Shown: positions 2,323 through 60,043, counted from the stretch's first letter. The stretch is DNA of 64,000 nucleotides from an uncultured Cytophagia bacterium (GCA_964647995.1 CAZYNP010000028.1:1151-65150); one strand, 5' to 3'. Notes: generated by a model not told the origin, from the letters alone. Numbers and translations are program-made.

Positions 2323-3516
2323 ATGACAAACGAAGAATTAATAAACCTGATCGCCAGCGGCGAGGATAGCAAGACACAATTTAAACTTAAATTTGAGAAC
2401 ATTGATAAATTATCTGCTGAAATCGCTGCCATGGCCAATTCCGAAGGTGGAATAATTGTAGTAGGTGTTGGCGATAATGGCGAGATTGTCGGCGTGGAAG
2501 ACCTTCCTAAATTAAATCAATGGATTTCCAATGCTGCTTCTCAAAAAATTCTGCCACCCATTCAGGTCATTACGGATAATGTGATTTACCAAAATAAACT
2601 GGTAGTTTGTATAAAAGTCCCATTGGGTACCAATAAACCTTATGCGGTGAACCAAACTGACTTTTGGGTGAAAGTTGGTGCCGATAAGCGCCGTGCCACT
2701 CGTGAGGAACTGCAGCGATTGATGCAGGCTGCTGCCATATTGCATGCAGATGAAAAATCTGTCATGGGAACAAGCATCAACGATTTAAACTTAGCGTTAT
2801 TTCAAGATTTTTATTTCGAGGAATATGAGCAAGAATTGCCTGAAAATCCCAATGAGGTAGCAACCATACTATCGAATTTGAAATTATTAAAAGAGGGACA
2901 AGCGACGCTGGCGGGGCTATTATTGTTCGGCAAAAAACCCGAGATAATCCTGCCACAATTTGTAATCAAAGCAGTCTGTTTTGTGGGAGAAGATGAAAGC
3001 GAAAATTCATTTATCGATAAAATTACAATTGGCGATATCCTTTCCTCTCAATTCCTGAACACCATGGCTTTTTTTAAGAGGAATCTGAAATATGTTCAGC
3101 GCAATGATTCGTCATTTAATGTAGCGGGTGAGCTGGAAATCCCCGTACGGGCTTTGGAAGAAGCGGTTACCAATGCCCTGCTCCATCGGGACTATTTGAT
3201 CCAAAGCAGCATCCGCATTTTTATTTTCAGAAATCGTATTGAAATTATAAGCCCAGGTGTACTTCCCAATACTGTGACCATTGAAAACATCAAACAAGGG
3301 ATACAGGTCGCCCGCAATCCAATATTGCTGTCTTTTGCTGCTAAATTAAGCCGACATAGGTATGAGGAATTGGGGCTGAAAATTCCATATAGCGGCATTG
3401 GTACGGGGATCAAACGAATTTTGAAAGAATGCAAAAATGCGGGAATTGCCCCGCCAGAATTCATTGAGGATCGGATCACGGGTCAATTCAAGGTGATTTT
3501 TGCTCGAAAAATATAA
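2323..3516 (+). CDS. ATP-binding protein with a divergent AAA (AlbA_2/Schlafen-like) N-terminal domain and a HATPase_c_4 (RecG C-terminal-like) domain.
   Basis: The N-terminus MTNEELINLIASGEDSKTQFKLKF...MANSEGGIIVVGVGDNGEIVGV is the AlbA_2 hallmark. The C-terminus EEAVTNALLHRDY...ISPGVLPN is HATPase_c_4-like. The start is taken at the ATG at 2323 rather than the upstream in-frame ATG at 2248. Confidence 0.7.
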   Translation: MTNEELINLIASGEDSKTQFKLKFENIDKLSAEIAAMANSEGGIIVVGVGDNGEIVGVEDLPKLNQWISNAASQKILPPIQVITDNVIYQNKLVVCIKVPLGTNKPYAVNQTDFWVKVGADKRRATREELQRLMQAAAILHADEKSVMGTSINDLNLALFQDFYFEEYEQELPENPNEVATILSNLKLLKEGQATLAGLLLFGKKPEIILPQFVIKAVCFVGEDESENSFIDKITIGDILSSQFLNTMAFFKRNLKYVQRNDSSFNVAGELEIPVRALEEAVTNALLHRDYLIQSSIRIFIFRNRIEIISPGVLPNTVTIENIKQGIQVARNPILLSFAAKLSRHRYEELGLKIPYSGIGTGIKRILKECKNAGIAPPEFIEDRITGQFKVIFARKI

Positions 3517-3521
3517 TTATT

Positions 3522-3548
3522 GTAGGACAAGATGCCATCTTGTCCTAC
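3522..3548. terminator. Perfect 13-bp-arm palindrome (gtaggacaagatg c catcttgtcctac) immediately 3' of the AlbA_2 gene; likely a terminator hairpin.
   Basis: The inverted repeat is visible in the sequence. A T-rich run follows on the minus strand and a weaker one on the plus strand. Confidence 0.45.
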
Positions 3549-3703
3549 AAAGCATAGCCCCCCAAAATCTGCCTGGTAATATTATCGGGCGTTATGCGTT
3601 TATGTATTAGGTTATTCGCCATAAGCTTTGCAGCCGACGCCAGCCTCCCTCTCACGTTCATCTTATTTGACTCCCGATTAAAATTATTGAATGGCTACAA
3701 AAA

Positions 3704-4086
3704 ATAACTGACAAATGTGTTGACCAGAAGTTTTTTTTCTTTTATTAAGCTGAACTGATTCCGATTCAATTATTCATGTGTGTAAACTCGATTCAATTCA
3801 CTATGAGAAAAAATTGCACTCAGGAATTTTACAGGCGCTGGCGGACTGGAATCTATAACGGGAAACAGGAGAGATTTTGTGAGGGTGGAAAAATAGTTTT
3901 TCTATGTGCAACACTGGATGATCCCAAAATCAAGCAAAGGGAAATAAATAGCTTGCTCGCCGCCATGGATGAGTTCGATGTAACCGAAGGTCTGATCTTA
4001 ACCCTGGATGAATCAGGATCGGAAAAGCTCGGCGACAAAAGGATTCGCTGGCAGCCGATCTGGAAATGGCTTTTGGAATAGCTAAT
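3704..4086 (+). repeat. Direct repeat copy B, paired with 1893..2267.
   Basis: See copy A. This copy retains an intact 101-aa ORF (3776..4081) encoding the ATPase C-terminal fragment. Confidence 0.8.
3776..4081 (+). pseudogene. C-terminal fragment of an AAA+ ATPase (DUF4143 family). It is a gene remnant lacking the ATPase core.
   Basis: The 101-aa ORF ends ...GLILTLDESGSEKLGDKRIRWQPIWKWLLE, the typical C-terminal tail of DUF4143 ATPases. Compare the intact member at 60077..61417 (...IPIEVKSG...LKIFLDEHP...). There is no Walker A/B upstream. Confidence 0.55.
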
Positions 4087-4152
4087 GGCTTCTTTTGAAT
4101 TCGCGATGATTTTGATCTACCTTAGCATCAAAAAAACCTGAACGGGCTGCAG

Positions 4153-4196
4153 AAAAGAATAAAAACCCTTCCGAAGGTTCCAAACCTTCAGAAGGG
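4153..4196 (-). terminator. Rho-independent terminator for the minus-strand gene ending at 4219.
   Basis: The 12-bp stem cccttccgaagg/ccttcagaaggg (one G-U wobble) has a ttccaaa loop and is followed on the minus strand by a U-tract (plus-strand aaaagaataaaaa). Confidence 0.6.
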
Positions 4197-4218
4197 TCAC
4201 GTAATCATTTGAAACGGA

Positions 4219-5595
4219 TTATTTCTTCAATTTTTCCAGCGCCCTTTTGGCATCTTCATAGCTGGAATCTAACTGCAGTGCTGCCTCATACGCTTGTTGC
4301 GCAGCCGCTTTATCACCCTTGAGCTCATAAAGTGCCCCCAGCCGAAAATGAGCGTTGGCCCAGGTGGGTTGATTCTCCCCTGGCTCATGCTGCAAATACA
4401 ACTTCAGGCATTCGATCCCTCGTTCCAGATTGGCCCCCGAAAAAACCGCTGTGCGACCGATCTGATACAAAGCAGGATAATAGTCGGGGTGATTTTTGAT
4501 GATCATTTCAAAAATTTTGAAGGCATTATCGTATTGCTTCTTTTGCTGATACAAAAAGCCAACCTGCATCTCGATTTCGATGGTTTGCTCATGATTATTT
4601 TTGATGAGTTCCTGGACCAGGTGCTCTACCTTTTGAGTGTCGCCTTTTTCCAGCAAAATATTGGCATAGGATGAGGCAAAATAACGATCAATTTTGCCAA
4701 CATTCCCGTTAATGACGCGATCGGCCAGCTCGACCCCTCGATCATAATTACTTTTTGAACTGAGGCAATACATGAGGTAAGACCTGACGAGCATTTGGCT
4801 CTCAGGAAATTTCGATATTAATTGGTCGAAAACTTTACTTGCTTTTTCCGACTGCTCTTTATTCACCAGGCTGCGATAAAAATCTCCAAAAACCACATCC
4901 AGAAATTGGCTAGTGGGAAATTCAGTGGCAAACTCCAGCACGGCTTCGGGACCTGAATAAGTGGCGGCAAAGCGAGCCAATTCATAAGCGGAAACCTCGG
5001 CGCTATCTTTGCCAAACGGCAACATGACTTGCCTGGCTCGTTCTGGCTGGCTCAATATTTTTTGAGCGAACTCCGCCATCTTTTCAAAGGCAAAATTCGA
5101 GCGGTACTTTTCCACCAGCCGAGCCAGAACTGCCACCTCTGCAGGATCTTTTTCATAAGCCTGCATTAAATTCAAGAAGTTGTTTTCACCGTGGTAGGTT
5201 TTTTCCAATGTATCCTTGAATTTTTCGGGAGGTGGGTCATAGCCTAGCACCCGATCGATTTCCTGGCCGTCGGCGGTAACGACCATCACCGTCGATGTGG
5301 CTCGAACCGAGAATTTTTTATAAATCTCATCTCCGTCAGGTTGACCCCGATGGGCGCGAAATAGCAGAAAATTTTGGGTGAGATAGGGATGAAATTGTTC
5401 ATCCTGGAAGAATTGCTTGTCCAGCAATCGGCAGCCACCTCAGCCAGCCGAGTAAAAATCGATCAGAATCTTCTTGCCGTCCTTCGCCGCCGTCGCCATC
5501 GCCTCATCGAATGATCCTTTGAACCAGAGTTCATTCTGAGCAAATAACGGTAGGGCGAAGACCAGAAGGATCAACAGCATCAACGGTTTTTTCAT
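4219..5595 (-). CDS. Candidate selenoprotein with a signal peptide, a thioredoxin-fold (Thioredoxin_7/DUF255-like) domain and C-terminal TPR repeats. An in-frame UGA at 5440..5442 is read as selenocysteine (FYSAG-U-GGC-R).
   Basis: The track ORF (4219..5427) starts at TTG. Manual translation upstream in the same frame gives MKKPLMLLILLVFALPLFAQNELWFKGSFDEAMATAAKDGKKILIDFYSAG-TGA-GGCRLLDKQFF... from the ATG at 5593-5595. The TGA falls at the first Cys of the expected CxxC motif. A 6-7 bp hairpin with a GGACA apical loop lies 11 nt downstream of the UGA (CGAUUGCU GGACA AGCAAUU), consistent with a bacterial SECIS element. Confidence 0.55.
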
Positions 5596-20537: not shown

Positions 20538-21995
20538 ATGCGATCAAAATGTCTACTGGCAGTTTTATTGATGAGCTTATTATTCATCAATTCAGTTTTC
20601 TCCCAGACCTGGGATCAGGCCACAGGTATCGGATTCACTGGCAATGGCATCAAATTTCTTGGCGGCGCAGTAGATCGAGCCGCATTGGGACTTGGCGGCG
20701 GGCTATCACTCAAATATGGCGCTTCACCTTATGTCATGTTCGATCTGAATGCCAATTATGGCAGTTTCAAGCCAACGGTTGACGGCTCGTGGTACAAGAA
20801 AGATGCCAGTGCACCTTTCCGTACCTTCCTTCTGCCGGTGTCGTTGGATATTCGCTTTACACCGGTTTCCGATGGTCGTGTGAAGCCCTACTTTACCTTT
20901 GGCGGTGGGCTGTTGCTCTGGGATTTGCGCAACGTGGCCGGCACCGACAAGAGCTTTTTTGGCGATTATGAACTGCGCTGGGGCGATAGTGTTCATAAGG
21001 GAACTCAGCGTGAATTTGTATTCAAAGGTGGCCTGGGCCTGGAACTCTTTTTCACCCATGCGGTGTCGCTGGATCTGCAGGCGGGAATGCAGTCGTTACT
21101 CAACAACGATCCCAAAGACAATGTTGGCTACGGCGATGCCAACAATTACGCCGCCACCGGCCGGGTTGGACTCAACTTCTACCTGGACTATTACAAGGAC
21201 ACCGATAAAGATGGGATCGAGGATAAAAAGGATGCCGATCCCTTGCGCCCAGAAGATGTCGACGGTTTCAAGGACGATGATGGCGCACCCGATGACGACA
21301 ACGACAATGACGGCGTGCCTGATCTAAGCGACAAAGCGCCCAATCTGGCCGAAGACAAAGATGGCTTCCAGGACGATGATGGCGTGCCCGATCCCGATAA
21401 CGACGGCGATGGCATTCTGGATGTTAACGATAAGGCGCCTAATGAAGCCGAAGACATGGATGGCTTCAAGGATGGTGATGGAATGCCCGATCCCGACAAC
21501 GACGGCGATGAGATCCTGGATGTCAACGATAAGTGCCCTGGAACGGATGCGACCGTTGCTAACGGCGAGAATACCAAAGAAACTTTCAATGGCTATCAGG
21601 ATGACGATGGTTGCCCTGATACCAAGCCAGTACCAGTTCAGTTAGAAAAGACAGGCGCAAAACTGGTACTCAAAGGAGTGAATTTTGAAACCGGCAGCGC
21701 AACGCTAACCAAGGAATCCTATGCGATTCTGGATGAAGTAATTGCTGGTTTGCGCGATAACAAAGATGTCAGCATTGAGATCCGTGGTTATACCGACAGT
21801 CAGGGGGCTGCGGCAGCCAATCAGAAATTATCGGAACGTCGCGCCAATACGGTGCTGCAATATCTGGTTACCAATGGCATCGAGCCCACCCGCTTGAAAG
21901 CGGTAGGCCTGGGCGAGAAGGATCCGATTGCATCCAATAACACACCCGAGGGACGCGCGCAAAATCGACGCATCGAGTTTGTGCGCACTAAGTAA
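20538..21995 (+). CDS. OmpA-family outer-membrane protein with an N-terminal beta-barrel, thrombospondin type-3 (TSP3) calcium-binding repeats and a C-terminal OmpA peptidoglycan-binding domain.
   Basis: It has a signal peptide and a good ribosome-binding site (AAGGAG). The Asp-rich D.D.DG..D..D repeats occur five to six times. The C-terminus IEIRGYTDSQG...LSERRANTV...NRRIEF is the OmpA signature. Confidence 0.8.
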   Translation: MRSKCLLAVLLMSLLFINSVFSQTWDQATGIGFTGNGIKFLGGAVDRAALGLGGGLSLKYGASPYVMFDLNANYGSFKPTVDGSWYKKDASAPFRTFLLPVSLDIRFTPVSDGRVKPYFTFGGGLLLWDLRNVAGTDKSFFGDYELRWGDSVHKGTQREFVFKGGLGLELFFTHAVSLDLQAGMQSLLNNDPKDNVGYGDANNYAATGRVGLNFYLDYYKDTDKDGIEDKKDADPLRPEDVDGFKDDDGAPDDDNDNDGVPDLSDKAPNLAEDKDGFQDDDGVPDPDNDGDGILDVNDKAPNEAEDMDGFKDGDGMPDPDNDGDEILDVNDKCPGTDATVANGENTKETFNGYQDDDGCPDTKPVPVQLEKTGAKLVLKGVNFETGSATLTKESYAILDEVIAGLRDNKDVSIEIRGYTDSQGAAAANQKLSERRANTVLQYLVTNGIEPTRLKAVGLGEKDPIASNNTPEGRAQNRRIEFVRTK

Positions 21996-47875: not shown

Positions 47876-48577
47876 TCACCACCGCAAGCCAATGGCGATT
47901 GTCAAAAACTCCATGAATGGACCTGACAACTGGCAGACCCCGGCAAATCGCTCCATAAAATTGATTTCGCAGGCCTGTTGTTCATTGAACTGGCAGAAGA
48001 GATACAGGTCTTTCAACTTTAGAACCTCGATCAGCGGATGGTGCGGATCATACCCTCTGGGCGCGGTCTTGAATTTTTCCCCCTCCAGCGTGAAAGTAGC
48101 GGCAAATTTCTCATCGCCAAAAATCTGCTGCCAGCGATCGGGATGGGCGACGATAGCATCCCGAATTCTTCCCAGCGTTTCGGCATCGGGCTGCCAGACC
48201 CCAATGGCAGTGAACACGTTGTCGGGTTCCAGATGCAGATAAAAGCCCGGGGCATGGGCATCCCTGGCGCTTTCATGTCGGAACTGAATTCCCGCATGGG
48301 TTTTATAAGGACTTTTATCCGGCGAAAAGCGAACGTCCCGATAAATCCGAAACAGCGAGCCACCCATCTTGCGAGCATCAGCCTCGAAATGCGGGCTGAT
48401 TTTTGCCAGATAAGGGGCAAAATCGGCTATAAATCTGAGCAGTGGCTCTCGCACCACTGCCTCGTAGCGATCCTTGTTTTCCTCGAACCAGGCTCGGTCG
48501 TTATTCAGCTTCAACTCTCTCAAAAAATCAAACAGCGCAGGGGTAATGTAAGGTGAAAAATTTTGATGATCGTTCAT
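47876..48577 (-). CDS. DUF2461 (TIGR02453) family protein.
   Basis: The N-terminal FDFLRELKLNNDRAWFEENKDRY motif and the R(I)YRDVRFSPDKSPYK motif are characteristic of this family. Confidence 0.6.
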   Translation of the reverse strand: MNDHQNFSPYITPALFDFLRELKLNNDRAWFEENKDRYEAVVREPLLRFIADFAPYLAKISPHFEADARKMGGSLFRIYRDVRFSPDKSPYKTHAGIQFRHESARDAHAPGFYLHLEPDNVFTAIGVWQPDAETLGRIRDAIVAHPDRWQQIFGDEKFAATFTLEGEKFKTAPRGYDPHHPLIEVLKLKDLYLFCQFNEQQACEINFMERFAGVCQLSGPFMEFLTIAIGLRW

Positions 48578-48747
48578 GGTCTCGTTTCCTTTGGATATTT
48601 TAATTCCATTCAAAATTTCCAATATCCAAAAATCAAAACTCAAATAAATTTCAATCCTCAATGCTCAAAATTCCAAAAAGTGTGCTTTATTGAAATTTTG
48701 GGATTGAATATTATTTGTTGTTTGTTTTTTGTGGTTTGAAATTTCAG

Positions 48748-49713
48748 CTAAAAGCGTTTTGTATAACCATGACAATACGGATGATGCCCCGTCTTCTGAT
48801 AGTAGGATTGGTGGTACCGCTCCGCCTCCCAGAACGTATCCGCCTTCGTTAATTGCGTAGCCACTTTGTAACCTTTGTCCTTCAAAATTTGGATTAGCTT
48901 CTCCGCAATCTGCTTTTGCTCCTCATTCACATAAAAAATCTCGGAGCGATATTGCTGGCCAATATCAGGCCCCTGGCGATTGACCTGAGTGGGATCGTGA
49001 ATTTCAAAAAACAGTCGAGCTAAAGTTTCAAAATCGGTCTGGGACGGATCGAACACGACCTCCATGGTCTCGGCATGGCCTGTATTGCCTTCGCAGACAT
49101 CGTCGTAGGTGGGATTTTTCAGATGTCCACCCATATAGCCCACTCGGGTGGAGAGCACGCCTTTTTCTTTTTGAAAGAAATATTCCACGCCCCAAAAACA
49201 GCCGCCGGCAAAATAGGCTTTTTCAGTTTTCACTTCTGCTTTTGTTTTTTCATCAGCAGGAATGAAATTCATCGAGATCGAATTCACGCAATGTCGGGTA
49301 TTCTTGGCGGTAAATCCTTCTCCCAAAAATACATGCCCGAGGTGACCGCCGCAGTTGGCGCAGACGATTTCGGTGCGAATGCCATCGGCATCGGGAATTC
49401 GCTTTACCGCTCCAGGGATTTCATCATCGAAGCTGGGCCAGCCACAGCCCGAATCGAATTTGTCTTCGGAGCGATACAGCGGCGCCCCACATTGCTTGCA
49501 CGTGTAAGTCCCCTTTTCTTTGTGATTGTAATACTTGCCCGTAAACGGCCTCTCCGTCCCTTTGTGAAGAATCACCCGTTGTTCCTCTGGAGTCAATTGA
49601 TTGTACTTCATACCACTATCCTGCTTTGTTTTATCCTGTGAAATTAAACTGATCGCAGCTATTGATACGACCAAAATCATCATAGAAATGATAATTGTTT
49701 TCATTTTAATCAC
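48748..49713 (-). CDS. msrAB: Bifunctional peptide-methionine sulfoxide reductase (MsrB-MsrA fusion) with a signal peptide.
   Basis: The MsrB zinc site is CKQCGAPLY...CANCGGHLGHVF and its catalytic region is GCGWPSF. The MsrA motif is GGCFWG. Confidence 0.8.
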   Translation of the reverse strand: MIKMKTIIISMMILVVSIAAISLISQDKTKQDSGMKYNQLTPEEQRVILHKGTERPFTGKYYNHKEKGTYTCKQCGAPLYRSEDKFDSGCGWPSFDDEIPGAVKRIPDADGIRTEIVCANCGGHLGHVFLGEGFTAKNTRHCVNSISMNFIPADEKTKAEVKTEKAYFAGGCFWGVEYFFQKEKGVLSTRVGYMGGHLKNPTYDDVCEGNTGHAETMEVVFDPSQTDFETLARLFFEIHDPTQVNRQGPDIGQQYRSEIFYVNEEQKQIAEKLIQILKDKGYKVATQLTKADTFWEAERYHQSYYQKTGHHPYCHGYTKRF

Positions 49714-49998
49714 CTGCCATTAATAACCTTTCAAAGGTTTAAAGCCTTCGACAGGGTTAGTTCAATATTTAATTGCATTGTCGAAAGAAATTCTCCAACG
49801 GATTGAAACAAGCCAACTGATTAGATAACTATTTATAAATCCGTTGGGTTGTTTCTATCCGTTAGTAAAAAGCTTGGCTTGCTTTCAGGATCTCAAAAAA
49901 ACTCCTTATGCAATTTCCATTATCCCAATCCCTTTTTTGCCATTTTTCACATCCTCAAACTATTTCTATCTGCCGTTTCACGATTCACCTAATCCACA

Positions 49999-50850
49999 TC
50001 ACGATTTTATAAACGTCCCATTCCGATATTCCTGGAACGCCACCATCAATTCCTCATCCGTATTCATCACAATCGGCCCGCGCCAGGCGATGGGCTCGTT
50101 CAATGGCTTGCCCGAAACCCATAGAAACCGAACAGGATCCGCCTGGGTCTGAATCTTGACCCTATCCCCCTGGGTGAAAACAATTAGATGATCGGCCTGA
50201 ACGGAGTCAGCGCTATCGGGATCGAAATAACCGCTGCCCTGAAACACAAAAGCAAACGTCTTGTAATCGGGTTTGGTAGCGATTTCTAATTCCGCATGTG
50301 GAGCGATGGCGACATCAAAATATTCGGTATCCACCACCAAATCCTGAACAGGGCCGTTCGTGCCATTCATTTGTCCTGCAATTATTTTAATCTTCACATT
50401 GGGATTGGGCGAAAACTCGGGGATGGTCTCGCTCCTGACATCCCGATACCTGGGTGCCATCATTTTATGCGACTTCGGCAGATTGACCCAGAGCTGAAAT
50501 CCCCGCATCTCTCCCTCAAATCGTTTTGGCATTTCCTGATGAATGATGCCGCTGCCCGCTGTCATCCATTGCACATCGCCCGAGTAGATCACCCCCCTGT
50601 TGCCCAGGCTATCGCCATGTTCCACCTCGCCCGCCAGCATGTAGGTCACCGTCTCGATCCCCCGATGCGGATGCCAGGGAAAGCCAGCGAGATAGTCCTC
50701 GGGATCATCCGATCCGAAATGATCGAGCAAAAGAAACGGATCGAGCAACGGCTTTTCATAATAGCCGAACACCCGCTTCAATTTCACCCCTGCTCCTTCG
50801 AGGGTCGGCTTGCTTTTTAGAATCTGATTAATTTTTCGGAATCCATTCAT
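49999..50850 (-). CDS. Pirin family cupin protein.
   Basis: It has the HPHRGIETVTYMLAG...H motif. Confidence 0.75.
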   Translation of the reverse strand: MNGFRKINQILKSKPTLEGAGVKLKRVFGYYEKPLLDPFLLLDHFGSDDPEDYLAGFPWHPHRGIETVTYMLAGEVEHGDSLGNRGVIYSGDVQWMTAGSGIIHQEMPKRFEGEMRGFQLWVNLPKSHKMMAPRYRDVRSETIPEFSPNPNVKIKIIAGQMNGTNGPVQDLVVDTEYFDVAIAPHAELEIATKPDYKTFAFVFQGSGYFDPDSADSVQADHLIVFTQGDRVKIQTQADPVRFLWVSGKPLNEPIAWRGPIVMNTDEELMVAFQEYRNGTFIKS

Positions 50851-50933
50851 GGTCTATTTCCTTTGACATTTTTAATTTCAGTTTAGGCGTCACCTGATCG
50901 AAAGAGTCGTAGCCGATAACAAGATGAAAACGG

Positions 50934-51488
50934 TTATTTAAACACCACTCTGGCCGTCGCATCTTCTTTGTAAAAAATCTCATGTCCATCCACCCATTGG
51001 CCGTTCTGAAGATATTGTGATTTACTATGCATTCTGCCATCGGGCAGCAACTCCCCAATGGCCTTCACTTCGGTGATGCCATTCGGATTGCCCGTCACCA
51101 GTTCGTGGCTGATCAATTTTTCCCCATCCACGGTAAATGTGCCGGTCGTGTAGAATCCTGCTGTGGTAAAATAAAAAAACAACAGTTGCTGTTTGTCCCT
51201 GTCCCAATAAATAATGGTCTCGCCACCATAGCTTCCATCATTGACCGAATGCATTATCCTGATGGCCTGACCATTCAGAATCAGTTCCCAGCGAGAGACA
51301 TCTACCATCGGTTTTTCGGCGGTGGCGTTGGCAAATTCACCCCGCCAGGTCTTGCCCACGAACGGCAGAAAAGGCTTCAGATGCTCATTGACCACAGGTT
51401 GATCGCTGGCAGGCTGGGCTTGTTGACCGTAAGCCGAAGCCGATATGAGCATTCCCAGCATCAGACTAACAAAAAAATGCTTATTCAT
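50934..51488 (-). CDS. Secreted hypothetical protein (184 aa).
   Basis: It has a signal peptide (MNKHFFVSLMLGMLISASAYG) and is beta-rich. I recognise no motifs. Confidence 0.45.
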   Translation of the reverse strand: MNKHFFVSLMLGMLISASAYGQQAQPASDQPVVNEHLKPFLPFVGKTWRGEFANATAEKPMVDVSRWELILNGQAIRIMHSVNDGSYGGETIIYWDRDKQQLLFFYFTTAGFYTTGTFTVDGEKLISHELVTGNPNGITEVKAIGELLPDGRMHSKSQYLQNGQWVDGHEIFYKEDATARVVFK

Positions 51489-52007
51489 CCATTCCTCCCT
51501 CAGTTAATATTGCTTAACGCCACCTGGCATAAGTTAAACGATCCAGGTTCGCACTTGCTCCCACCGAACTGAACTCCCATCGAAAAATTTTGTTTTAAAG
51601 TCCCCATACCTTGCCAGGTATTTCATCACAACTCAATTTCTCACCCACATATTTTCACCAGGTGCCATGCCATATCCCCCAAACTCCTTGCGCTATCACT
51701 TCCGCTTGCCTCGCTCGAAGTCGGAGTTTTGGAGCAATGGAGTGCTGCGGATTTCTAACTGTCATTCATTACTCCATCACTCCAATGCTTCATCACTACA
51801 TCATTTCAAAACCATGCATCTAAATTTTCAAATCAAAATGACAGGGTCGACTCCAGATAGCAACAGGCAGCCGACCCTGTCTGTGCGGAGGGTAGTTCTT
51901 CTATTTGCAACTCGATTTCGAGCCAGCACTATCCGAGTAAATCAGCTTTGCCCGCTCATTTCAGGAATTATGCCAATTGCTCCAATTTCTCGATTGGCCA
52001 ATTAGCG

Positions 52008-52138
52008 AAATTCGTTTCGTTAGTGCAATTAGCGGTCTCATCGAGTCTACCACCGATGTCACCACTAACCCGAGTCACACACTCCGCCTCATCAGAAAAT
52101 TAGCGGAATTCGTTTAATTGGCGTCATTAGCGGTCCAC
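52008..52138. repeat. Two copies (A1 at 52008-52049, A2 at 52096-52138) of an AATTAGCG-rich short repeat family; orientation is inverted relative to the B copies at 55184-55470.
   Basis: A1 is ccaattagcgaaattcgtttcgttagtgcaattagcggtctc. A2 is aaaattagcggaattcgtttaattggcgtcattagcggtccac. Both share AATTAGCGRAATTCG and ATTAGCGGTC with the B elements. Confidence 0.7.
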
Positions 52139-52159
52139 TTTGGCCGTCGCTTCCCCTTA

Positions 52160-52768
52160 TCACTTCATCGCCGCATGAAATTTCTCCGCCACGGCCTTCC
52201 AATTGACCACATTCCACCAGGCCTCGATGTAATCGGGACGTCGGTTCTGGTATTTCAAATAGTAGGCGTGTTCCCAGACATCGATGCCCAGGATCGGCGT
52301 CATCCCCTCGCTGATCGGGCTATCCTGATTGGCCGTGCTGCTCACCATCAAGCGACCAGCTTTGACGCTCAGCCAGGCCCAGCCGCTGCCAAAGCGGGTG
52401 GCTGCGGCATTGGAAAATTTTTCTCTAAACGCCTTAAAATCGCCAAACTCTTTTTTGATCGCCGCTGCTAGATCGCCTGTCGGTTCACCGCCTGCGTTTT
52501 TCGCCATAATTTCCCAGAATAATATATGGTTCACATGGCCGCCGCCGTTGTTCCGAACCGCCGTGCGTATGGCCTCGGGCACAGCGTTCAAATCTGCCAA
52601 TAATTTTTCCACGCTATCAGCTTGAAAATTGGCCGATTCCAGCGCTTTATTCAAATTGGTGGTATAAGCCACATGATGCTTGTCATGATGAATCTCCATG
52701 GTGCGCGCATCGATATAGGGTTCTAAGGCATCATAAGCATAATGTAAATTCGGTGTCTTGAAATTCAT
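52160..52768 (-). CDS. sod: Fe/Mn superoxide dismutase.
   Basis: [25 protein letters not shown], the metal-ligand motifs and the C-terminal DVWEHAYY are present. Confidence 0.85.
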
Positions 52769-53007
52769 AATTTGCTCCTTCTATGTTTTGATTCATGTTT
52801 TCATCTTAAAAATTTTTTCCAACGGATTGATGAAGCCAACGGATAATTTTATTAATATCATTTTCTCAGATTTAGCATCAACATCCACATCCAATTAGCC
52901 GATCCACCTGTCATCGTCCCCCTTTTGGAGGATGCCAGTGGGATGTTATTCATCTTGAAACAGGGGAATTAACATCTATGAGTGCAATTTAACTCAATAT
53001 CATTGAA

Positions 53008-53032
53008 ATACCAGACCAAATTGGTCTTATTT
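53008..53032. promoter_or_regulatory. Operator-like palindrome ATACCAGACCAAATTGGTCTTATTT (core AGACCAA-A-TTGGTCT) in the sod upstream region; a near-copy lies at 55911..55935.
   Basis: It is a 15-bp perfect inverted repeat, and 21 of 25 positions match the site directly upstream of the Rrf2 regulator gene. Confidence 0.45.
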
Positions 53033-53064
53033 GTGTAGAAAAAAATTTCTCAATCACGATTAAA

Positions 53065-53159
53065 AACGATTACTAAACCTGAAAAGTTTAGTAATCGTTG
53101 TCCCCTGTTATTTGGAGGTACAATTACCAAACTTGAAAAGTTTGGTAATTGTACCTCCC
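53065..53159. other. Two adjacent perfect hairpins (14-bp and 19-bp stems) with near-identical 7-nt loops (cTGAAAA / tTGAAAA), lying 3' of the RNA ligase gene.
   Basis: The first is aacgattactaaac ctgaaaa gtttagtaatcgtt. The second is ggaggtacaattaccaaac ttgaaaa gtttggtaattgtacctcc. On the minus strand the first is followed by a T-rich run, so it may act as a terminator. Confidence 0.6.
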
Positions 53160-53208
53160 CACTTGTTTCTCCCCAATTACCCAGTTACCCAATTACCTAA
53201 TCACCCAA

Positions 53209-54219
53209 CTACTCTTCATATTTCAACAAAAACTCAGGATTCACGACCTTGAAGCTCAGCCTTCCCAATTCAGGATCTTGCGCCTCGACAACGGGTCGGA
53301 TGACAATGCCTTCCCTGGGAATATCGGGATTGAGCACGCTTTTGTCATTGGACAGCGCCACCAGACCATCCACATCGTGCGTACCCAGGATGTAATCGTC
53401 GCGAATAATGGGCACGGTCTCGAATCCTGCCTCTCTGGCCAGGGCCACAAATTCCTCATAATTCAAATAGACAAAGCGATCGATGTCGAAGATGCTATAG
53501 ATCAGCACCTGGTGGCCAGGCAGTTTATATTTATTGCCCTGAATTTTCGGTCCCAGTATCTCCCCCTGAAAGGCGATGTTGCGATGGAGCTTTCGCAGTT
53601 TGCCCTCGATGTCGTGCAAGCGAGCGACCATCCAGTGGATATTGGTCTCGGTCTCCAGCAACTCCAGATTGCGAGAGCAAACGCCAAACTCACTATCCCG
53701 AATGTAATAGGTGGCGCTGGTGCCATCCACCTTTTCGGTAATATAGCAACGCTGGCCCACGTTTTCAGGTCGGGTGAGCACATCGGGCACGGATTGGATG
53801 CGCATCTCGTCGGTTTTGGGGATGAACCCAGGGAAACTGCCTTTTACCTGGCCGCTGGTCATCACGGCTGGCGGCGGCTCATATTTTTTAATTCCCAGCA
53901 GCTCGGTGACATCCATTCCCTCGCTGATCGGAACGTTTTCCAGCTCTTTGATCTGATGAATAGGAAAAGCAATGCCCTGCGAAATCTGTCCCCGCAGCTT
54001 CACGGTCTTGATCCTGAACTTCCGTGGCCGCAAAAATTCATATTCGGGCTTTTCGGGCAACATGCTGTCGATCTCACAATAGACGCAATAGTCACCCACT
54101 TTGAAATCTCCCTTCTTGACCACCAGTTGCCAGCCCAGCACGGTGGCCTTTTCAATCTTGTCCGCCTCGGGAATTGGCTCCAGACTTTTGATCCGCTGGA
54201 TCGTAGCTAATTTTCTCAT
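53209..54219 (-). CDS. ATP-dependent RNA ligase of the Rnl5 family (DraRnl/NgrRnl-type; TIGR02306-like).
   Basis: It has the N-terminal OB-like domain MRKLATIQRI...ADKIEKATVLGWQLVVKKGDFKVGDYCVYCEIDS and the nucleotidyltransferase motif I ITEKVDGTS with Lys at about residue 163. At 336 aa both the size and the lysine position match DraRnl (342 aa, Lys165) as I recall it. Confidence 0.7.
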   Translation of the reverse strand: MRKLATIQRIKSLEPIPEADKIEKATVLGWQLVVKKGDFKVGDYCVYCEIDSMLPEKPEYEFLRPRKFRIKTVKLRGQISQGIAFPIHQIKELENVPISEGMDVTELLGIKKYEPPPAVMTSGQVKGSFPGFIPKTDEMRIQSVPDVLTRPENVGQRCYITEKVDGTSATYYIRDSEFGVCSRNLELLETETNIHWMVARLHDIEGKLRKLHRNIAFQGEILGPKIQGNKYKLPGHQVLIYSIFDIDRFVYLNYEEFVALAREAGFETVPIIRDDYILGTHDVDGLVALSNDKSVLNPDIPREGIVIRPVVEAQDPELGRLSFKVVNPEFLLKYEE

Positions 54220-54254
54220 TTTTAGACTCCTTTTTCGTCTTGAGTGCCTTTTTT

Positions 54255-54598
54255 AAATATTTTCTCTCCCAGAAACGATATCCCACCGAAATGAATTTTT
54301 AGAATTTTTATTATCAGGGAAGCGGCTTCCTATTACCCTCTATTACCGAATTGCCCAATTATTTTAAAATATTTTTTCCCACAGAAATGAAATCCCACCG
54401 AAATGGATTTTTAGAATTTTTATTATCAGGGAAGTGGCTTCCTATTACCCTATTACCGAATTGCCCAATTATCTTAAAGTATTTTTTCCCACAGAAATTA
54501 AATCCCACCGAAATGAATTTTTAGAATTTTTATTATCAGGGAACGGGCTTCCTATTAACTTATTACCCTATTACCCAATTACCTAATTGCCCAATCCC
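54255..54598. repeat. Tandem array of three units of about 114 bp, each containing TTTTCCCACAGAAATGAAATCCCACCGAAATG, TTTTTAGAATTTTTATTATCAGGGAAGYGGCTTCC and CCTATTACCGAATTGCCCAATTA.
   Basis: The units are at 54255-54370, 54371-54480 and 54481-54598 and are more than 90% identical. The array lies between the trx-like stop (54599) and the RNA ligase start (54219). Confidence 0.8.
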
Positions 54599-55228
54599 CT
54601 AACGACCCGATTTCCACTTGATATTACACCCAATACTTGGTTTTTGATCCTGGCTCACGGGCTTGCCAGCGATGATGGCCTCCAGCGCCGCCCGAAGGTC
54701 TTCGCCCGTTACAGGAATATCATTACTGGGCCGAGAGTCATCCATCTGGCCCCGATAGACCAATTTCAAATCTTTATCGAAAACATAAAAATCAGGCGTA
54801 CAGGCGGCCAGATAGGCACGGGCGACCTCCTGGGATTCGTCGTAAAGATAAGGGAACGGATAACCGAACTGCTTCGCCACTTTTTTCATCTCTGCTGGAG
54901 AATCTTCGGGGTAGCCCTGCACATCGTTGGAGCTAATGGCAATGAATGAAATTCCTTTCGACAGGTAATCCTTTGCCAATTGCACCAACCCTGTTCGAAC
55001 GTGCTTAACAAACGGGCAATGATTGCAAATAAACATCACTACTGTCGCCGTATCCGATTTTAGCTCTTGCAACGATAGTACTTTTCCAGAAATGGTATCG
55101 GGCAATTTGAAATCAGGCGCCGATGTTCCCAACGGCATCATGTTCGATGGCGTGACTGCCATTTGTTCCTCCGCTTTATTTGTGACCGCTAATTTCGCGA
55201 ACGAGACGAATTTCGCTAATTGGCGCAA
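54599..55228 (-). CDS. Thioredoxin-fold protein (AhpC/TSA-redoxin/TlpA-like) with a CxxC motif (CNHCPF).
   Basis: APDFKL...VVMFICNHCPFV is a redoxin-type motif. The start may be the internal Met (MAVTPSNMMPLG). Confidence 0.6.
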   Translation of the reverse strand: MRQLAKFVSFAKLAVTNKAEEQMAVTPSNMMPLGTSAPDFKLPDTISGKVLSLQELKSDTATVVMFICNHCPFVKHVRTGLVQLAKDYLSKGISFIAISSNDVQGYPEDSPAEMKKVAKQFGYPFPYLYDESQEVARAYLAACTPDFYVFDKDLKLVYRGQMDDSRPSNDIPVTGEDLRAALEAIIAGKPVSQDQKPSIGCNIKWKSGR

Positions 55229-55470
55229 TTAGATTAATTCGCGAAATTAGCGGTCAACTGTATTCGTCCAAAGCAATTGCTGTCGACAGAGCAAAAGATT
55301 TCTGACCGCTAATTTCGCTAATTGATAAGAATTTCGCCAATTGATGATTGGCCTGCATTTCGATTCGTAAATCTATGAAGCCATGCATTTTTGTTTGTAC
55401 CCCAATCACTTCAAACTCAAAAATTAATAATTCGCGCAATTAGATTAATTCGCGAAATTAGCGGTCAACC
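55184..55470. repeat. MITE-like palindromic elements with 18-bp terminal inverted repeats GACCGCTAATTTCGCGAA / TTCGCGAAATTAGCGGTC. B1 (55184-55258) is a 75-bp complete element. B2 (55304-55351) and B3 (55429-55470) may be the two ends of a 167-bp element.
   Basis: The terminal inverted repeats are perfect. The right half of B1 and B3 are identical over 37 nt. The family is shared with the A copies at 52008-52138. Confidence 0.7.
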
Positions 55471-55476
55471 CAGAAT

Positions 55477-55902
55477 TCAATAGCTTGTGGAAAATTTCTT
55501 CTCAAAATCTTTGAGCGTAATTTCATCCAATAAATTGACCAATTTCGATTGAATGTCCTCCATGGATTTTCGGATCAGGCAATTGCGCTCCCGCTCGCAG
55601 ACCGTTTCCTCGTCAGCATCCAGGCAATCGGCGATAGCAATTGGGCCGTCAATAGCCGTGATCACCGAGGAAATATTGATGCGATCGATGGGCTGGGCTA
55701 AGTAATAGCCCCCTTTTACACCTTGCACAGAGATCACCATTCCACTTTTCACCAGGCTCTGCAGAATTTTTCCCATCAGCTCCAGCGAAATGTTATATTT
55801 ATCCGATAGCTCCCGTGCAGTTGTCAACTCATCAGGCGATTTCTTTGCCATGTGCAGGAGGGCGATCAAAGCGTATTCCACTTTTTTGCTGAATTTCATC
55901 AT
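55477..55902 (-). CDS. Rrf2-family transcriptional regulator (IscR/NsrR-like) with three candidate Fe-S ligand cysteines.
   Basis: The N-terminal HTH is KKVEYALIALLHMAK...LTTARELS and a GG(Y)YLA-like region is present. Cysteines lie in ...ADCLDADEETVCERERNCLI. Confidence 0.7.
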   Translation of the reverse strand: MMKFSKKVEYALIALLHMAKKSPDELTTARELSDKYNISLELMGKILQSLVKSGMVISVQGVKGGYYLAQPIDRINISSVITAIDGPIAIADCLDADEETVCERERNCLIRKSMEDIQSKLVNLLDEITLKDFEKKFSTSY

Positions 55903-55910
55903 CAGAAGTT

Positions 55911-55935
55911 ATACCAGACTGAATTGGTCTTACTT
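55911..55935. promoter_or_regulatory. Operator-like motif ATACCAGACTGAATTGGTCTTACTT, 9-33 bp upstream of the Rrf2 start codon; paired with 53008..53032.
   Basis: It is similar to the sod-upstream palindrome, and its position is consistent with an autoregulatory operator. Confidence 0.4.
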
Positions 55936-55952: not shown

Positions 55953-56200
55953 CATTTTTTTCCAATGATTTCACCCACTGAAACGCCTGGCGAAAAAATT
56001 TGTTCCAAAATAGGACTATGGAGGTCGGATTTAAAATTGGAATTCTATTTTTAAATTTCGTTAGCGAAAAGGAATGATTTTTCTCCCACAGAAATGGAAT
56101 CCCACAGAAAAGAAAACTTAGGTTTTATTGATAGATGCTCTGTTTTCTGATTTTAAAAAAAGACTTTCTCTCCCACCGAAATGGAATCCCACAAAAATAG
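55953..56200. repeat. Three dispersed copies of the TTTYTCCCACMGAAATGGAATCCCAC motif (also present in the 54255-54598 array) in the Rrf2/sigma divergent intergenic region.
   Basis: Copies lie at 55953-55985, 56075-56110 and 56163-56200. Confidence 0.6.
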
Positions 56201-56388: not shown

Positions 56389-56979
56389 ATGGAGCTGGAG
56401 AACATGAAGGCGACGGAAGCTTTGGTCGAACGCTATCGCCAGGGCGATCATGCTGCTTTTGACCAGTTAATACAAGAGCATGGCAGGCCGCTATACAATT
56501 TCATACTTTCTATGACCAAAAGCAAGTCGCTGGCCGACGATGTCTATCAAGAAACCTGGAGTCGGGTCCTTCACCACCTCGATGACTATCGAGAGCAGGG
56601 GCAATTTAAATGCTGGCTGTTCCAGATCGCCAACCATCAATGCCTGAATCACCTGCGATTGCTCAGACGAGTCTTTGTGCCATTGACCGAGATAGTCAAT
56701 GTCGAGAGCGAAGCGAACCTAATCATCAGCGGTTCCAATCCTGATCCCGGGCCTGATGAAAAATTGGAGCGCAACGAACGCCTCAAATGGGTTTGTGCGT
56801 GCGCTCAACAATTGCCCATCAAGCAGCGTCAGGTTTTTCTCTTGAAAATGAACAGCGATCTGACATTCAAAGAGATTTCAATGATTTTGAACCGACCGTT
56901 GAATACTGTGCTCACGCAGATGCGAACGGCACTTTTGACCATGAGGAAAAAACTAAAGGCCATTTATGATGAAGTGTAA
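56389..56979 (+). CDS. ECF-type RNA polymerase sigma-70 family factor.
   Basis: Region 2 (DVYQETWSRV...FKCWLFQIANHQCLNHLR) and a region 4 HTH (FKEISMILNRPLNTV) are present. Confidence 0.75.
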   Translation: MELENMKATEALVERYRQGDHAAFDQLIQEHGRPLYNFILSMTKSKSLADDVYQETWSRVLHHLDDYREQGQFKCWLFQIANHQCLNHLRLLRRVFVPLTEIVNVESEANLIISGSNPDPGPDEKLERNERLKWVCACAQQLPIKQRQVFLLKMNSDLTFKEISMILNRPLNTVLTQMRTALLTMRKKLKAIYDEV

Positions 56980-57409
56980 ATTTGACAGGTCAAAATTAAT
57001 TTTATACCTATTCAATGAAGTTACCTCAGCCGAAAGAGAGGAAATTTCCGCTCACATCGAATCCTGCGAGGTGTGCGCCTTAGAACTTGAACAGCTAAGT
57101 TCCGTTCGGAGTCGCTGGCCCAACCAGCCCATCGCCGATCCGCCCTCTCTTCATATTGTCAAAACGCCAGCGCGGCAGAAACTGGTTCGCCAGCCTCGCC
57201 GAGCCAGGAGAGTTCGGCGGCTGATACCTGCTCTGGGCTTTGCCATTGTGCTGGCTATCATTGCATTTTCACTGATCTGGCGGTTGGCGATCAATAAGCG
57301 ATCCAATTATTGGAGCATCGAAAATAGCTGGGAAGGACCCTATCGGTATCAGTTCGAAAGAATAGATCGTACCATTGAGATGATCAAGAATGATGAATTT
57401 TTTAACTAA
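56966..57409 (+). CDS. Anti-sigma factor (zf-HC2 type) with one TM helix.
   Basis: It has the HxxxCxxC motif AHIESCEVCALEL and a TM segment (LIPALGFAIVLAIIAFSLIW). Its start overlaps the end of the sigma gene. Confidence 0.6.
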   Translation: MMKCKFDRSKLILYLFNEVTSAEREEISAHIESCEVCALELEQLSSVRSRWPNQPIADPPSLHIVKTPARQKLVRQPRRARRVRRLIPALGFAIVLAIIAFSLIWRLAINKRSNYWSIENSWEGPYRYQFERIDRTIEMIKNDEFFN

Positions 57410-58720: not shown

Positions 58721-59902
58721 ATGCAATCAATAAAAATATACTCCTATATTTTGATCTCCTCACTTTTTTTCTTTACGTATTTGCATGGGCAACCATCAGG
58801 TTGGCAAGGGAAAACAGAAATCAAAAAGAATATTCACTATATTTACAATCCAAAACAAGGTTTATGGGACGATGATCCTTCAAAACAAATTACGTTAGAA
58901 AAACGATTCAGCATCGGGTATTACGAAGGACCAGAGGATTATCTTTTTGCATTAGTTAGAGAAGTCATCGTTGATAGCAATGGCAGGATAATCGTGCTTG
59001 ATAAGGATTGCGTGCGAATTTTTGATCAATCGGGTAAGCATGTCCTGACTTTCGGCAGCGAAGGCGAAGGGCCTGGCGAATTTAAAATTCCTCGAGGAAT
59101 GGCATTGGATGATAATGGCAATATTTATATCTATGATTCCATTTTGCAGCGAGTGTCAGTTTTTGATTCGGTTGGCAAATTTATCAGAAGCATTCGGTTG
59201 AATGACAGAATGTTTGGCAAGATTGGATTAAAGTCAAATCATGATATCGTTCTATCGAGAATGATTCTGTTCGATCCTCGAATGCCCGATCAGTTTAAGG
59301 ATCATAAGCTCATTCGATTATACAATCAAAAAGGGAAAAAGCTTGCCTCGTTTTTCGAAGCTGAATTAATTGTCAACAATGGACCTTTTGGTCGGGAACA
59401 ATTTTCCTGGTGCTATTTCCAATTATTGAAAGGGGATACTTTGATCGGTGGCTATAATTACCCTTACAAAATTCATCTTTTTGATCCGAACAATAAGCTC
59501 TTCAAAGTCATTCAGCGGGAGTCACCCATTTTTTCGAAACCGAGTCTGCTATCATCTCAAATGAAAATGATGGATGGCAATATCTTTGAAACAAAAGCCC
59601 TGGCGTTACGGGCATCGATCTGGGATATTTTTGTTTTGCCAGATGGAAAATTTTTCGTTTATATTAAAGACAATGGTCCCGATTATAAAGAGCACTTCTC
59701 AAAAAATGCACTCGGCTCCCAGGAGGGAACCATGGTGCTTGATCTATACGATAAAAACGGCTATTTTTTGAAAAGCTATCCTTATGTGAACGAGAAATAT
59801 GGCAAGATAATATTTGTCGATGCCGAGGGATATTTGTACACGGCGATTGGTCCCAGTGAGCTTATTCCTGGCGTGACGAAATGGCGGATATCTTTTGAAT
59901 AA
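58721..59902 (+). CDS. Secreted beta-propeller protein (NHL / 6-bladed TolB-like repeats).
   Basis: It has a signal peptide (MQSIKIYSYILISSLFFFTYLHG) and repeated D.NG.IYV.D segments (DSNGRIIVLD, DDNGNIYIYD). A GGAGG ribosome-binding site lies 10 nt upstream of the ATG at 58721. Confidence 0.5.
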   Translation: MQSIKIYSYILISSLFFFTYLHGQPSGWQGKTEIKKNIHYIYNPKQGLWDDDPSKQITLEKRFSIGYYEGPEDYLFALVREVIVDSNGRIIVLDKDCVRIFDQSGKHVLTFGSEGEGPGEFKIPRGMALDDNGNIYIYDSILQRVSVFDSVGKFIRSIRLNDRMFGKIGLKSNHDIVLSRMILFDPRMPDQFKDHKLIRLYNQKGKKLASFFEAELIVNNGPFGREQFSWCYFQLLKGDTLIGGYNYPYKIHLFDPNNKLFKVIQRESPIFSKPSLLSSQMKMMDGNIFETKALALRASIWDIFVLPDGKFFVYIKDNGPDYKEHFSKNALGSQEGTMVLDLYDKNGYFLKSYPYVNEKYGKIIFVDAEGYLYTAIGPSELIPGVTKWRISFE

Positions 59903-59910
59903 TTAGAACA

Positions 59911-60043
59911 ACCTTGATTTTTGACCATCCCCGCTCCCATTTTACCTTGATTTTTGACCATAACTGCTCTCATTTTACCTTTCTTTTTAACCATAATTAT
60001 ACAAAAATATCCTTGATTTTTAGCCATAATCTTTGTATTATTT
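59911..60043. repeat. Four tandem copies of a roughly 33-bp unit (ACCTTGATTTTTGACCATNNCNGCTCNCATTTT), degenerating towards 3', upstream of the DUF4143 ATPase gene.
   Basis: The units are at 59911-59943, 59944-59976, 59977-60010 and 60011-60043. The first two are about 85% identical. Confidence 0.7.

Follow-up and report, generated by a model that had tools for sequence, protein, structure and literature searches.

We analysed a window of 64,000 nucleotides (CAZYNP010000028.1:1151-65150 of GCA_964647995.1, deposited as an uncultured Cytophagia bacterium), in which genes for a superoxide dismutase (sod), an Rnl5-type RNA ligase (rnl), a thiol redoxin and an Rrf2-family regulator (rrf2) lie together among copies of a short palindromic repeat. 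The preliminary description of this region had taken the repeats for the borders of a mobile or inserted island. Our comparisons lead to a different picture. In all likelihood, the genes are an oxidative-stress cluster passed on by vertical descent in a bacterium of the candidate division KSB1 and not an insertion; the ligase, judged by the sites upstream of rrf2 and sod, appears to be wired into a redox-stress regulon; and the repeat is a previously undescribed palindromic family of KSB1 bacteria that resembles repetitive extragenic palindromic (REP) sequences and miniature inverted-repeat transposable elements (MITEs). The placement in KSB1 was inferred from one neighbouring gene, encoding an M16C peptidase 85% identical to a protein of a KSB1 bacterium.

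The four genes are all encoded on the minus strand, and matches to Pfam, TIGRFAM and solved structures confirmed the identities and positions first proposed for them:

52160-52768, minus strand: sod, Fe/Mn superoxide dismutase (SOD), 202 aa (Pfam Sod_Fe_N and Sod_Fe_C)
53209-54219, minus strand: rnl, Rnl5-type ATP-dependent RNA ligase, 336 aa (Pfam, TIGR02306, alignment with NgrRnl)
54599-55162, minus strand: PRX-like CxxC redoxin of the AhpC/TSA fold, 187 aa (Pfam AhpC-TSA/Redoxin)
55477-55902, minus strand: rrf2, Rrf2-family regulator, 141 aa (Pfam Rrf2, PF02082, E = 4e-36)

The redoxin has its CxxC motif as C47-N-H-C50 (CNHC), and its nearest solved structure is that of an uncharacterised protein (2YWI, E = 2e-88).

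By sequence, the window ligase is a true Rnl5 enzyme with a predicted Mn-dependent nick-sealing activity. It scores 194.8 bits against TIGR02306 (RNA_lig_DRB0094; cutoff 151.15) and aligns end to end with the Naegleria enzyme NgrRnl (5COT; E = 1.3e-65, 44% identity). PF21189 covers residues 4-87 and PF09414 residues 158-326, giving an N-terminal OB-like module and a C-terminal nucleotidyltransferase domain with no extra C-terminal domain. Five of the five catalytic residues are kept: K163, D165, E220, E303 and K324 align with K170, D172, E227, E312 and K326 of NgrRnl, a list comprising the KxDG nucleophile and the metal and phosphate ligands (PMC9931718). In its family, its domains (the N-terminal OB module and the nucleotidyltransferase domain) and its catalytic residues, the enzyme is thus like DraRnl and NgrRnl. 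The loci differ, however. In Deinococcus radiodurans, the operon of DraRnl (DR_B0094) is induced after damage, its deletion sensitises the cells to ionising radiation, and rnl is paired with the gene of a DEDDh-like exonuclease, DR_B0095 (PMC5397189), whereas the window ligase is accompanied by a thiol redoxin, SOD and a regulator of the redox-sensor type. The physiological roles of Rnl5 ligases have been described as uncharted (PMC5397189). The human protein C12orf29 has a nucleotidyltransferase domain resembling that of NgrRnl, and human cells without it are hypersensitive to menadione and lose 28S rRNA (PMC9931718). Our literature search found no paper tying Rnl5 to an Rrf2 regulon.

The cluster extends beyond what had been described. 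Downstream of sod, 47876-51488 adds the first four genes below, and a divergent pair lies on the far side of rrf2:

50934-51488, minus strand: secreted 184-aa protein of unknown family
49999-50850, minus strand: pirin
48748-49713, minus strand: msrBA, MsrB-MsrA fusion
47876-48661, minus strand: DUF2461/TIGR02453 protein
56389-56979, plus strand: extracytoplasmic function (ECF) sigma factor, divergent from rrf2 (Pfam Sigma70_r2/r4_2)
56966-57409, plus strand: membrane anti-sigma factor with the zinc motif H-x3-C-x2-C (zf-HC2; AHIESCEVC in the translation)

For the synteny comparison, we took as relatives those contigs that encode a ligase 77-85% identical to the window's (L007, L008/L009, L010 and L095; compared loci are given L numbers throughout). 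In these relatives, sod, rnl and the redoxin gene travel together beside an Rrf2 regulator, which supports that part of the preliminary description. The order rrf2-redoxin-rnl-sod-pirin-msrBA is common to L007, L008/L009 and L095, followed by DUF2461 in L007 and L008/L009 and by an ERCC4-domain gene at that position in L095, and L010 carries rrf2-redoxin-rnl. The continuation of the cluster at 47876-51488 has the same order in L001, L007, L008 and L098, and L007 also shares the window's genes for the ECF sigma factor, the anti-sigma factor and a CarboxypepD_reg protein on the far side of rrf2. The ECF sigma/anti-sigma pair adjoins the cluster only in the window, L098 and L007. In all, rrf2-redoxin-rnl is kept in four independent relatives, where the spacers are short: the one between rrf2 and the redoxin gene measures 12-99 nt vs about 314 nt in the window, the one between the redoxin gene and rnl 69-163 nt vs about 379 nt, and in L095 just 52 nt separate rnl from sod. 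The relatives' operon spacers, searched by exact motif and by profile hidden Markov model (HMM), hold no copy of the repeat.

A much closer relative is L098, a contig from a different sample: over 4.7 kb it shares 98.9% identity with the window, the only differences being whole repeat units. The window has two more 110-nt units (three copies, vs one in L098) and one more 54-nt hairpin unit 3' of rnl; in the repeat array downstream of sod (array A, below), L098 is the longer by 92 nt, which is a third repeat copy. Short-read assemblies of the same population (L001 and L002-L006) break at the repeats, 90 nt upstream of rnl and inside the 110-nt units, leaving rnl alone on contigs of about 1.1 kb. 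The segment had been called recombination-prone, and this holds for the repeat arrays, whose copy number varies between near-identical strains, but not for the genes. No GC anomaly was found over the cluster, no tRNA gene at the segment borders, and no transposase or integrase among the open reading frames (ORFs) between 47.8 and 58.6 kb.

The case for a common regulon comes from putative control sites upstream of rrf2 and sod:

56009-56032, minus strand: distal Rrf2-type operator, AAATCCGAC-N7-GTCCTAT, abutting the -35 box (conserved in L007, L008, L010 and L095)
55982-56007, minus strand: ECF-type promoter TGGAAC-N16-CGTT upstream of rrf2 (conserved; resembles the consensus)
55911-55932, minus strand: proximal Rrf2-type operator, TAAGACCAATTCAGTCTGGTAT (conserved in all operon-bearing relatives)
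53008-53029, minus strand: further operator of the proximal type, TAAGACCAATTTGGTCTGGTAT, lying about 240 nt ahead of sod (motif match)

Alignment of five upstream loci (the window, L007, L008, L010 and L095) gave a common architecture: the distal operator, AAATAGGAC-N7-GTCTTAT, directly behind it TT(T/C)GGAAC, 16 nt and GCGT(T/A), and some 35 nt beyond these the proximal operator and then the rrf2 start codon. In the window, the two operators are about 96 nt apart; the proximal one ends 8 nt before the rrf2 ATG, and its 3' end reads TGGTATAAC, resembling an extended -10 box. TGGAAC-N16-CGTT has a single match in 64 kb (0.09 expected), while TTTGGAAC-N16-CGTT is found at the same place in L007, L008, L009, L010 and L098-L100, and L095 has the variant CGGAAC-N16-CGTA. 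The 22-nt palindrome TAAGACCAATT(C/T)(A/G)GTCTGGTAT has exactly two matches in the window vs 0.08 expected, one upstream of rrf2 and one upstream of sod, and a proximal-type operator precedes sod in L007 as well. GGAAC...CGT is a hallmark of ECF-sigma promoters, and the operator AAATAGGAC-N7-GTCTAGTAT resembles an IscR type-1 site. It is because the conserved operators and promoter stand upstream of rrf2, and an operator copy upstream of sod, that Rnl5 appears to belong to a redox-stress regulon. The pairing with a regulator made in the preliminary description gains substance here, shared operators tying rrf2 and sod to one regulator.

The two putative transcription units may be delimited by hairpins at their 3' ends:

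53065-53216, minus strand: 3' region of rnl, with an octamer array at 53168-53216 together with a pair of related 54-nt hairpin units (inverted-repeat search, Tandem Repeats Finder (TRF), folding)
51829-51881, minus strand: terminator-like hairpin of sod, GACAGGGTCG...CGACCCTGTC then AUUUUGAUUUG (-27.4 kcal/mol, z = -4.05)

Of the rnl hairpins, one lies at 53114-53158; the other, at 53065-53099, has UUUUUAAU behind it and is likely the terminator of rnl. Because this hairpin and UUUUUAAU stand after rnl, with a homologous hairpin 3' of rnl in L007, the arrangement suggests that rrf2, the redoxin gene and rnl form one transcript. A hairpin homologous to that of sod is found about 20 nt after the sod stop codon in L007 and L008. 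General scans for sigma-70 promoters and terminators gave counts not above shuffled controls, the GC rule of the scanner missing AT-rich hairpins.

As for the regulator, the Rrf2 protein scores 120.7 against TIGR00738 (cutoff 73.3) and carries three C-terminal cysteines, Cys93-x8-Cys102-x5-Cys108, where IscR and NsrR bind their cluster. It is like the Fe-S Rrf2 regulators (IscR, NsrR, RsrR, RirA) in its winged-helix fold, its three C-terminal cysteines and its palindromic operators with apparent autoregulation, yet differs in cysteine spacing (C-x8-C-x5-C, as opposed to C-x5-C-x5-C) and in its putative targets, a PRX-like redoxin, an RNA ligase and sod rather than isc, suf or hmp genes. From the promoter type and its adjacency, the neighbouring ECF sigma factor is a candidate driver of the rrf2 promoter. 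The nearest known counterpart of such a pair is SigR-RsrA, which it resembles in combining an ECF sigma factor with an H-x3-C-x2-C anti-sigma factor beside antioxidant genes (redoxin, msr, sod) and an ECF-like -35/-10 pair upstream of the operon; here, however, the anti-sigma factor has a transmembrane segment.

From these elements, we propose the following model. The core operon rrf2-redoxin-rnl would be read from the ECF-type promoter between the two Rrf2-type operators, and its transcript would end at the hairpin and U-run after rnl. Expression of sod would follow either by direct co-transcription, as the 52-nt spacer of L095 suggests, or, in the window, from behind its own operator copy, with pirin, msrBA and DUF2461 next in line. 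The three-cysteine Rrf2 protein may hold an Fe-S cluster and repress its own operon and sod until oxidants damage the cluster, and an ECF sigma factor, possibly the neighbour with its zinc anti-sigma factor, would drive transcription. Made together with SOD and a thiol reductase, Rnl5 might then reseal 3'-OH/5'-PO4 nicks that oxidative damage leaves in the RNA strands of duplexes. Taken further, Rnl5 would be a regulated effector of an oxidative-stress regulon, switched on with SOD and the redoxin by an Fe-S Rrf2 regulator and an ECF sigma factor; we offer this last reading as a tentative proposal, about which we are more doubtful than confident.

Several observations weigh against the model. 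The Rrf2 protein falls below the curated cutoffs of IscR, NsrR, RirA, the SUF regulator and CymR (for IscR 90 vs a cutoff of 207, for NsrR 64 vs 182), so that of the earlier label 'IscR/NsrR-like' the Rrf2 domain and the three cysteines stand, but no named orthologue does. The operators and promoter are assigned from their conservation and from a likeness to published consensus sequences, and the motif scan of the window found no operator upstream of pirin, msrBA or any gene other than rrf2 and sod. In L105, whose ligase is 76% identical, rnl stands alone with no operon partners, and six of the six more distant Rnl5 homologues examined do not have the rrf2-redoxin-sod association. The link between Rnl5 and antioxidant genes is therefore limited to a single KSB1 clade, and the gene order could be neutral.

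The last point amounts to an alternative of its own, in which rnl became lodged downstream of rrf2 and the redoxin gene in one KSB1 clade and has been passively co-transcribed ever since, the neighbourhood carrying no meaning for Rnl5. This agrees with the contexts in which Rnl5 is found elsewhere. Seven homologues at 76% identity or less are in other contexts; at 57-70% identity they are solitary in Anaerolineales, Poribacteria and others, and in Xanthocytophaga agilis (L103, 2591-12990) the Rnl5 gene is part of a large RNA-repair cluster with genes for Ro60/TROVE, an Rnl1-type ligase, Macro, Thg1, RtcB and an ADP-ribosylglycohydrolase. Set against this, rrf2-redoxin-rnl has been kept although the ligase diverged to 77% identity and the flanks were reshuffled, relatives with spacers of 69-129 nt show no promoter-like conserved block between the redoxin gene and rnl, and published work links this ligase fold independently to oxidative or radiation damage (PMC5397189, PMC9931718). 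On balance, we regard a meaningless neighbourhood as unlikely.

Turning to the repeats, motif counts and the HMM place them, as first noticed, at two places flanking sod, rnl and the redoxin gene. With up to one mismatch, AATTAGCGGTC has seven matches in the window vs 1.27 expected, six of them at 52027-52135 and 55184-55466, and nine of the ten matches to AATTAGCG (2.8 expected) fall in the same two places. The profile HMM, which was built from copies in other metagenomes and contains no window sequence, found no copies in the whole window beyond these:

55184-55255, no strand assigned: repeat copy B1, complete, 72 bp (HMM E = 1.6e-17, model positions 1-79)
55304-55466, no strand assigned: repeat copy B2+B3, 163 bp, in the rrf2-redoxin spacer (nhmmer E = 6.6e-08 and 2.3e-10)
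51952-52135, no strand assigned: repeat array A, past the sod stop codon and ahead of the sod terminator (inverted-repeat search and HMM)

B1 has the perfectly complementary 18-nt ends, GACCGCTAATTTCGCGAA and TTCGCGAAATTAGCGGTC, that had been attributed to it; its length is 72 bp, or 74 bp with a T/A extension, and not 75 bp. A single strand of it folds into a stem of 20 bp (-38 kcal/mol, z = -7.2), and the redoxin ATG follows 21 nt after its end. B2 and B3 are the two ends of one copy (55304-55362 and 55400-55466) enclosing unrelated sequence, and array A consists of a half copy (52096-52135) and a near-full copy with a decayed left end (51952-52037). Both sets lie inside transcription units.

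Copies of the repeat are widely dispersed. Scanning genomes for an 18-mer, with one genome per species and the source genome not among the representatives, returned 13 matches, close to a rough chance estimate of about 17; five are real copies, all complete palindromes with the same two ends, from four metagenome-assembled genomes of which one is labelled KSB1. Metagenome contigs, scanned for both 11-nt ends lying 48-78 nt apart, yielded 78 copies at 71 loci, with 79 nt as the modal length (30 copies) and 88 nt as the next most common (10 copies). The profile HMM confirms 57 of the 71 loci, with 83 copies, and the remaining 14 or so are unrelated palindromes that merely fit the end pattern. 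L045, L052/L069, L057/L077/L080 and L038/L058 hold unrelated long perfect palindromes of other organisms that start with GACCGC(G/T)AATT and end with AATT(A/C)GCGGTC; these are probably chance matches, favoured since a palindrome meets both ends at once.

The canonical unit reads GACCGCG-(AATT+5 nt)x3-AATTAATAATT-(5 nt+AATT)x3-AGCGGTC, with AATT recurring every 9 nt. In 23 copies, the AATT boxes and both termini (GACCGC/GCGGTC) are invariant and the 5-nt fillers vary. The 79-nt unit is composed of two inverted halves of about 38 nt; lone halves also occur, as do longer versions of 163 and 251 bp with the same ends. Pairing between the halves amounts to 78% and is carried entirely by the invariant blocks. 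A covariation test of the stem gave compensatory changes at no more than the level of shuffled controls, and selection for the hairpin structure can therefore not be claimed.

The surroundings of the copies are diverse. Intergenic placement was seen for 39 of 42 copies, and the 65 proteins flanking copies match 91 Pfam families at E <= 1e-5, none of the 25 most frequent listed having more than three matches. Neither a transposase family among these 25 nor a REP-associated tyrosine transposase (RAYT) among the most frequent families of the 65 proteins was found, and oxidative-stress genes are not enriched next to the other copies; one copy beside an ORF whose translation reads as glutathione-peroxidase-like was treated as chance. 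The 12-nt flanks of the 78 copies show no visible target-site duplication. Many copies share longer conserved flanks that make up a unit of about 160 nt, itself bordered by arrays of the octamer GGTAATTG, and 16 of the 57 loci have local arrays of two to four copies with periods of 114-163 nt. The family also occurs on other contigs of the assemblies JABAOC, JABAOH and JAEAME, whose rnl operons are repeat-free. Viral contigs gave one match only and no phage link. At gathering scores, no Rfam family matched the window, and canonical copies at E <= 1 returned nothing meaningful, only spurious miRNA-type hairpin matches. Two loci have neighbours of note: in L059, about 60 nt separate a copy from a group II intron 3' domain (7-91; RF00029, 46.4 bits, above the gathering score), and in L043, copies at 2038-2125, 2151-2238 and 4409-4496 surround a two-gene cassette (ORFs 2823-3446 and 3443-4279) that, read from its sequence, looks like an AbiEi/AbiEii-type antitoxin-toxin pair and not a transposase. 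A literature search on the terminal sequences and on KSB1 repeats found no description of this repeat.

The MITE-like nature first suggested for the repeat is borne out to the extent that it belongs to a dispersed MITE/REP-like family with inverted termini and many unrelated loci. With REP/REPIN elements and clusters of bacterial interspersed mosaic elements (BIMEs), it shares being short, non-coding, imperfectly palindromic and extragenic, with many dispersed copies, local clusters or tandem arrays, and a frequent presence in transcribed spacers and 3' untranslated regions (UTRs); its two inverted halves and single halves recall REPINs and REP singlets. It differs in having no sequence similarity to them, in its host (KSB1 here, Proteobacteria there), and in that many copies are contained in the conserved unit, about 160 nt long, that has GGTAATTG arrays on its sides. 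We know of no counterpart among REP elements to the AATT-every-9-nt architecture with GACCGC termini. With bacterial MITEs (the Correia elements of Neisseria, RUP, Nezha), it has in common a length of 70-250 bp, terminal inverted repeats, a variable interior, insertion near genes and co-transcription with them, whereas no target-site duplication was seen, the 25 most frequent Pfam families listed for the flanking proteins gave no sign of an autonomous element with matching ends, and tandem arrays of fixed period (114-163 nt) are untypical of cut-and-paste MITEs.

In this one strain lineage, the palindromic repeats have in all likelihood landed in transcribed spacers, namely the rrf2-redoxin junction and the sod 3' UTR, and they and the other local repeats expand and contract, probably by recombination or slippage. 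As the second, separate part of our tentative proposal, with the same reserve, the AATT-phased palindrome could be a repeat of a new type, mobile or self-propagating, with GGTAATTG arrays as its landing sites. Two facts count against our main reading, in which the operon is inherited and the repeat dispersed. All the repeat copies of the 64 kb lie within one cluster, which is more clustered than random scatter, and the copies of the source genome are known from the 64-kb window alone. Local arrays are, on the other side, typical of the family elsewhere.

Could the repeats instead be functional cis-elements of the operon, recruited or selected at this site, either protein-binding AATT arrays or RNA hairpins that tune the stability or translation of the rrf2, redoxin and sod mRNAs? 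Some REP elements do set the stability or translation of mRNA segments. The positions would suit such a role, all copies being within transcribed spacers, with the B1 hairpin just before the redoxin start codon and array A between the sod stop codon and the terminator, and so would the invariance of AATT boxes and termini over the 23 copies. We nevertheless consider it improbable: the same operon stands in four relatives without the repeats, strains sharing 98.9% identity carry different numbers of copies, the family adjoins 91 unrelated Pfam families, and the stem shows no covariation above shuffled controls. That the inverted copies delimit a 3.3-kb island of sod, rnl and the redoxin gene, composite and either mobilisable or recently inserted, is the least credible reading by far, with hardly any probability left to it: it has in its favour the opposite orientation of the copies on the two sides, the 44-nt arm at 51997-52040 that is 89% complementary to 55181-55224, and the confinement of every copy in 64 kb to this cluster, but it fails because the same genes, order and flanks stand in relatives without the supposed borders, and it faces in addition the lack of a compositional shift, of a nearby transposase and of a visible target-site duplication, as well as the L098 strain, which shows only repeat-unit indels. 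The conserved cluster passes both supposed brackets, with rrf2 and its promoter on one side and pirin, msrBA and DUF2461 on the other, and therefore the repeats bracket no unit. The preliminary description had itself reckoned that repeats at hundreds of unrelated intergenic sites, with no island boundaries, would speak for ordinary REP-like elements, and essentially such a distribution was found, with copies at 57 or more unrelated, mostly intergenic sites of KSB1-type contigs.

The palindromic family is not the only repeat in the region. Every spacer of the 5-kb stretch is unusually long and filled with several unrelated kinds of repeats, the largest block being in the redoxin-rnl spacer:

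54253-54581, no strand assigned: three tandem 110-nt units (TRF score 510)

Each of these units combines an octamer array with a small GC hairpin and a pair of TCCCACNGAAATG boxes spaced 16 nt apart. Octamer arrays of the ATTACCCA type follow the redoxin and rnl stop codons; in gene sense, the octamer is GGTAATTG, and its arrays start directly after the two stops (54436-54610 and 53168-53216). Such arrays also occur in L007, L008, L010, L019, L035, L042, L056 and L074, and elsewhere they flank the 160-nt composite form of the palindromic repeat, for which they may be landing sites. They are reminiscent of the short tandem repeats of cyanobacteria.

A few other repeats were recorded. A second octamer family (GGAGTGAT/GGAGTAAT) forms an inverted pair at 51767-51803, just after the sod terminator, which is kept in the sod-downstream spacers of L007 and L008. 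Direct repeats of TCCCAC(A/C)GAAATG(A/G)A (in gene sense TTTC(G/T)GTGGGA) have nine matches vs 0.2 expected, at 51559-51590, 54281-54517 and 56084-56185, that is, upstream of the 184-aa gene, upstream of rnl, and in the gap separating rrf2 from the ECF sigma gene; L008 has a similar box ahead of rrf2, and these boxes may be a binding site for a factor. Farther away, a 99-nt tandem repeat (21267-21533; 2.7 copies, 79% matches) forms part of an OmpA-family gene (20538-21995), where it encodes aspartate-rich, calcium-binding-like repeats, and a 33-nt tandem repeat (59911-59996; 2.6 copies) is in the spacer after a gene ending at 59902.

The repeat family adds a new REP/MITE-like example from a poorly known phylum. 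Its practical weight is that short-read assemblies break exactly at these genes; conceptually, it makes the spacers differ between near-identical strains without turning the operon into a mobile element. For the ligase, the only prior leads on Rnl5 were the radiation sensitivity of Deinococcus (PMC5397189) and the oxidant sensitivity of human cells without a distantly related ligase (PMC9931718). The operon described here gives an independent genomic hint that oxidative RNA breakage may be an Rnl5 substrate, together with defined putative operators and a promoter. If the proposal is true, breaks made by reactive oxygen species in structured RNA or in ribonucleotide-containing DNA would be an important lesion with a dedicated, co-regulated repair enzyme, and the Rnl5 family would gain a testable function.

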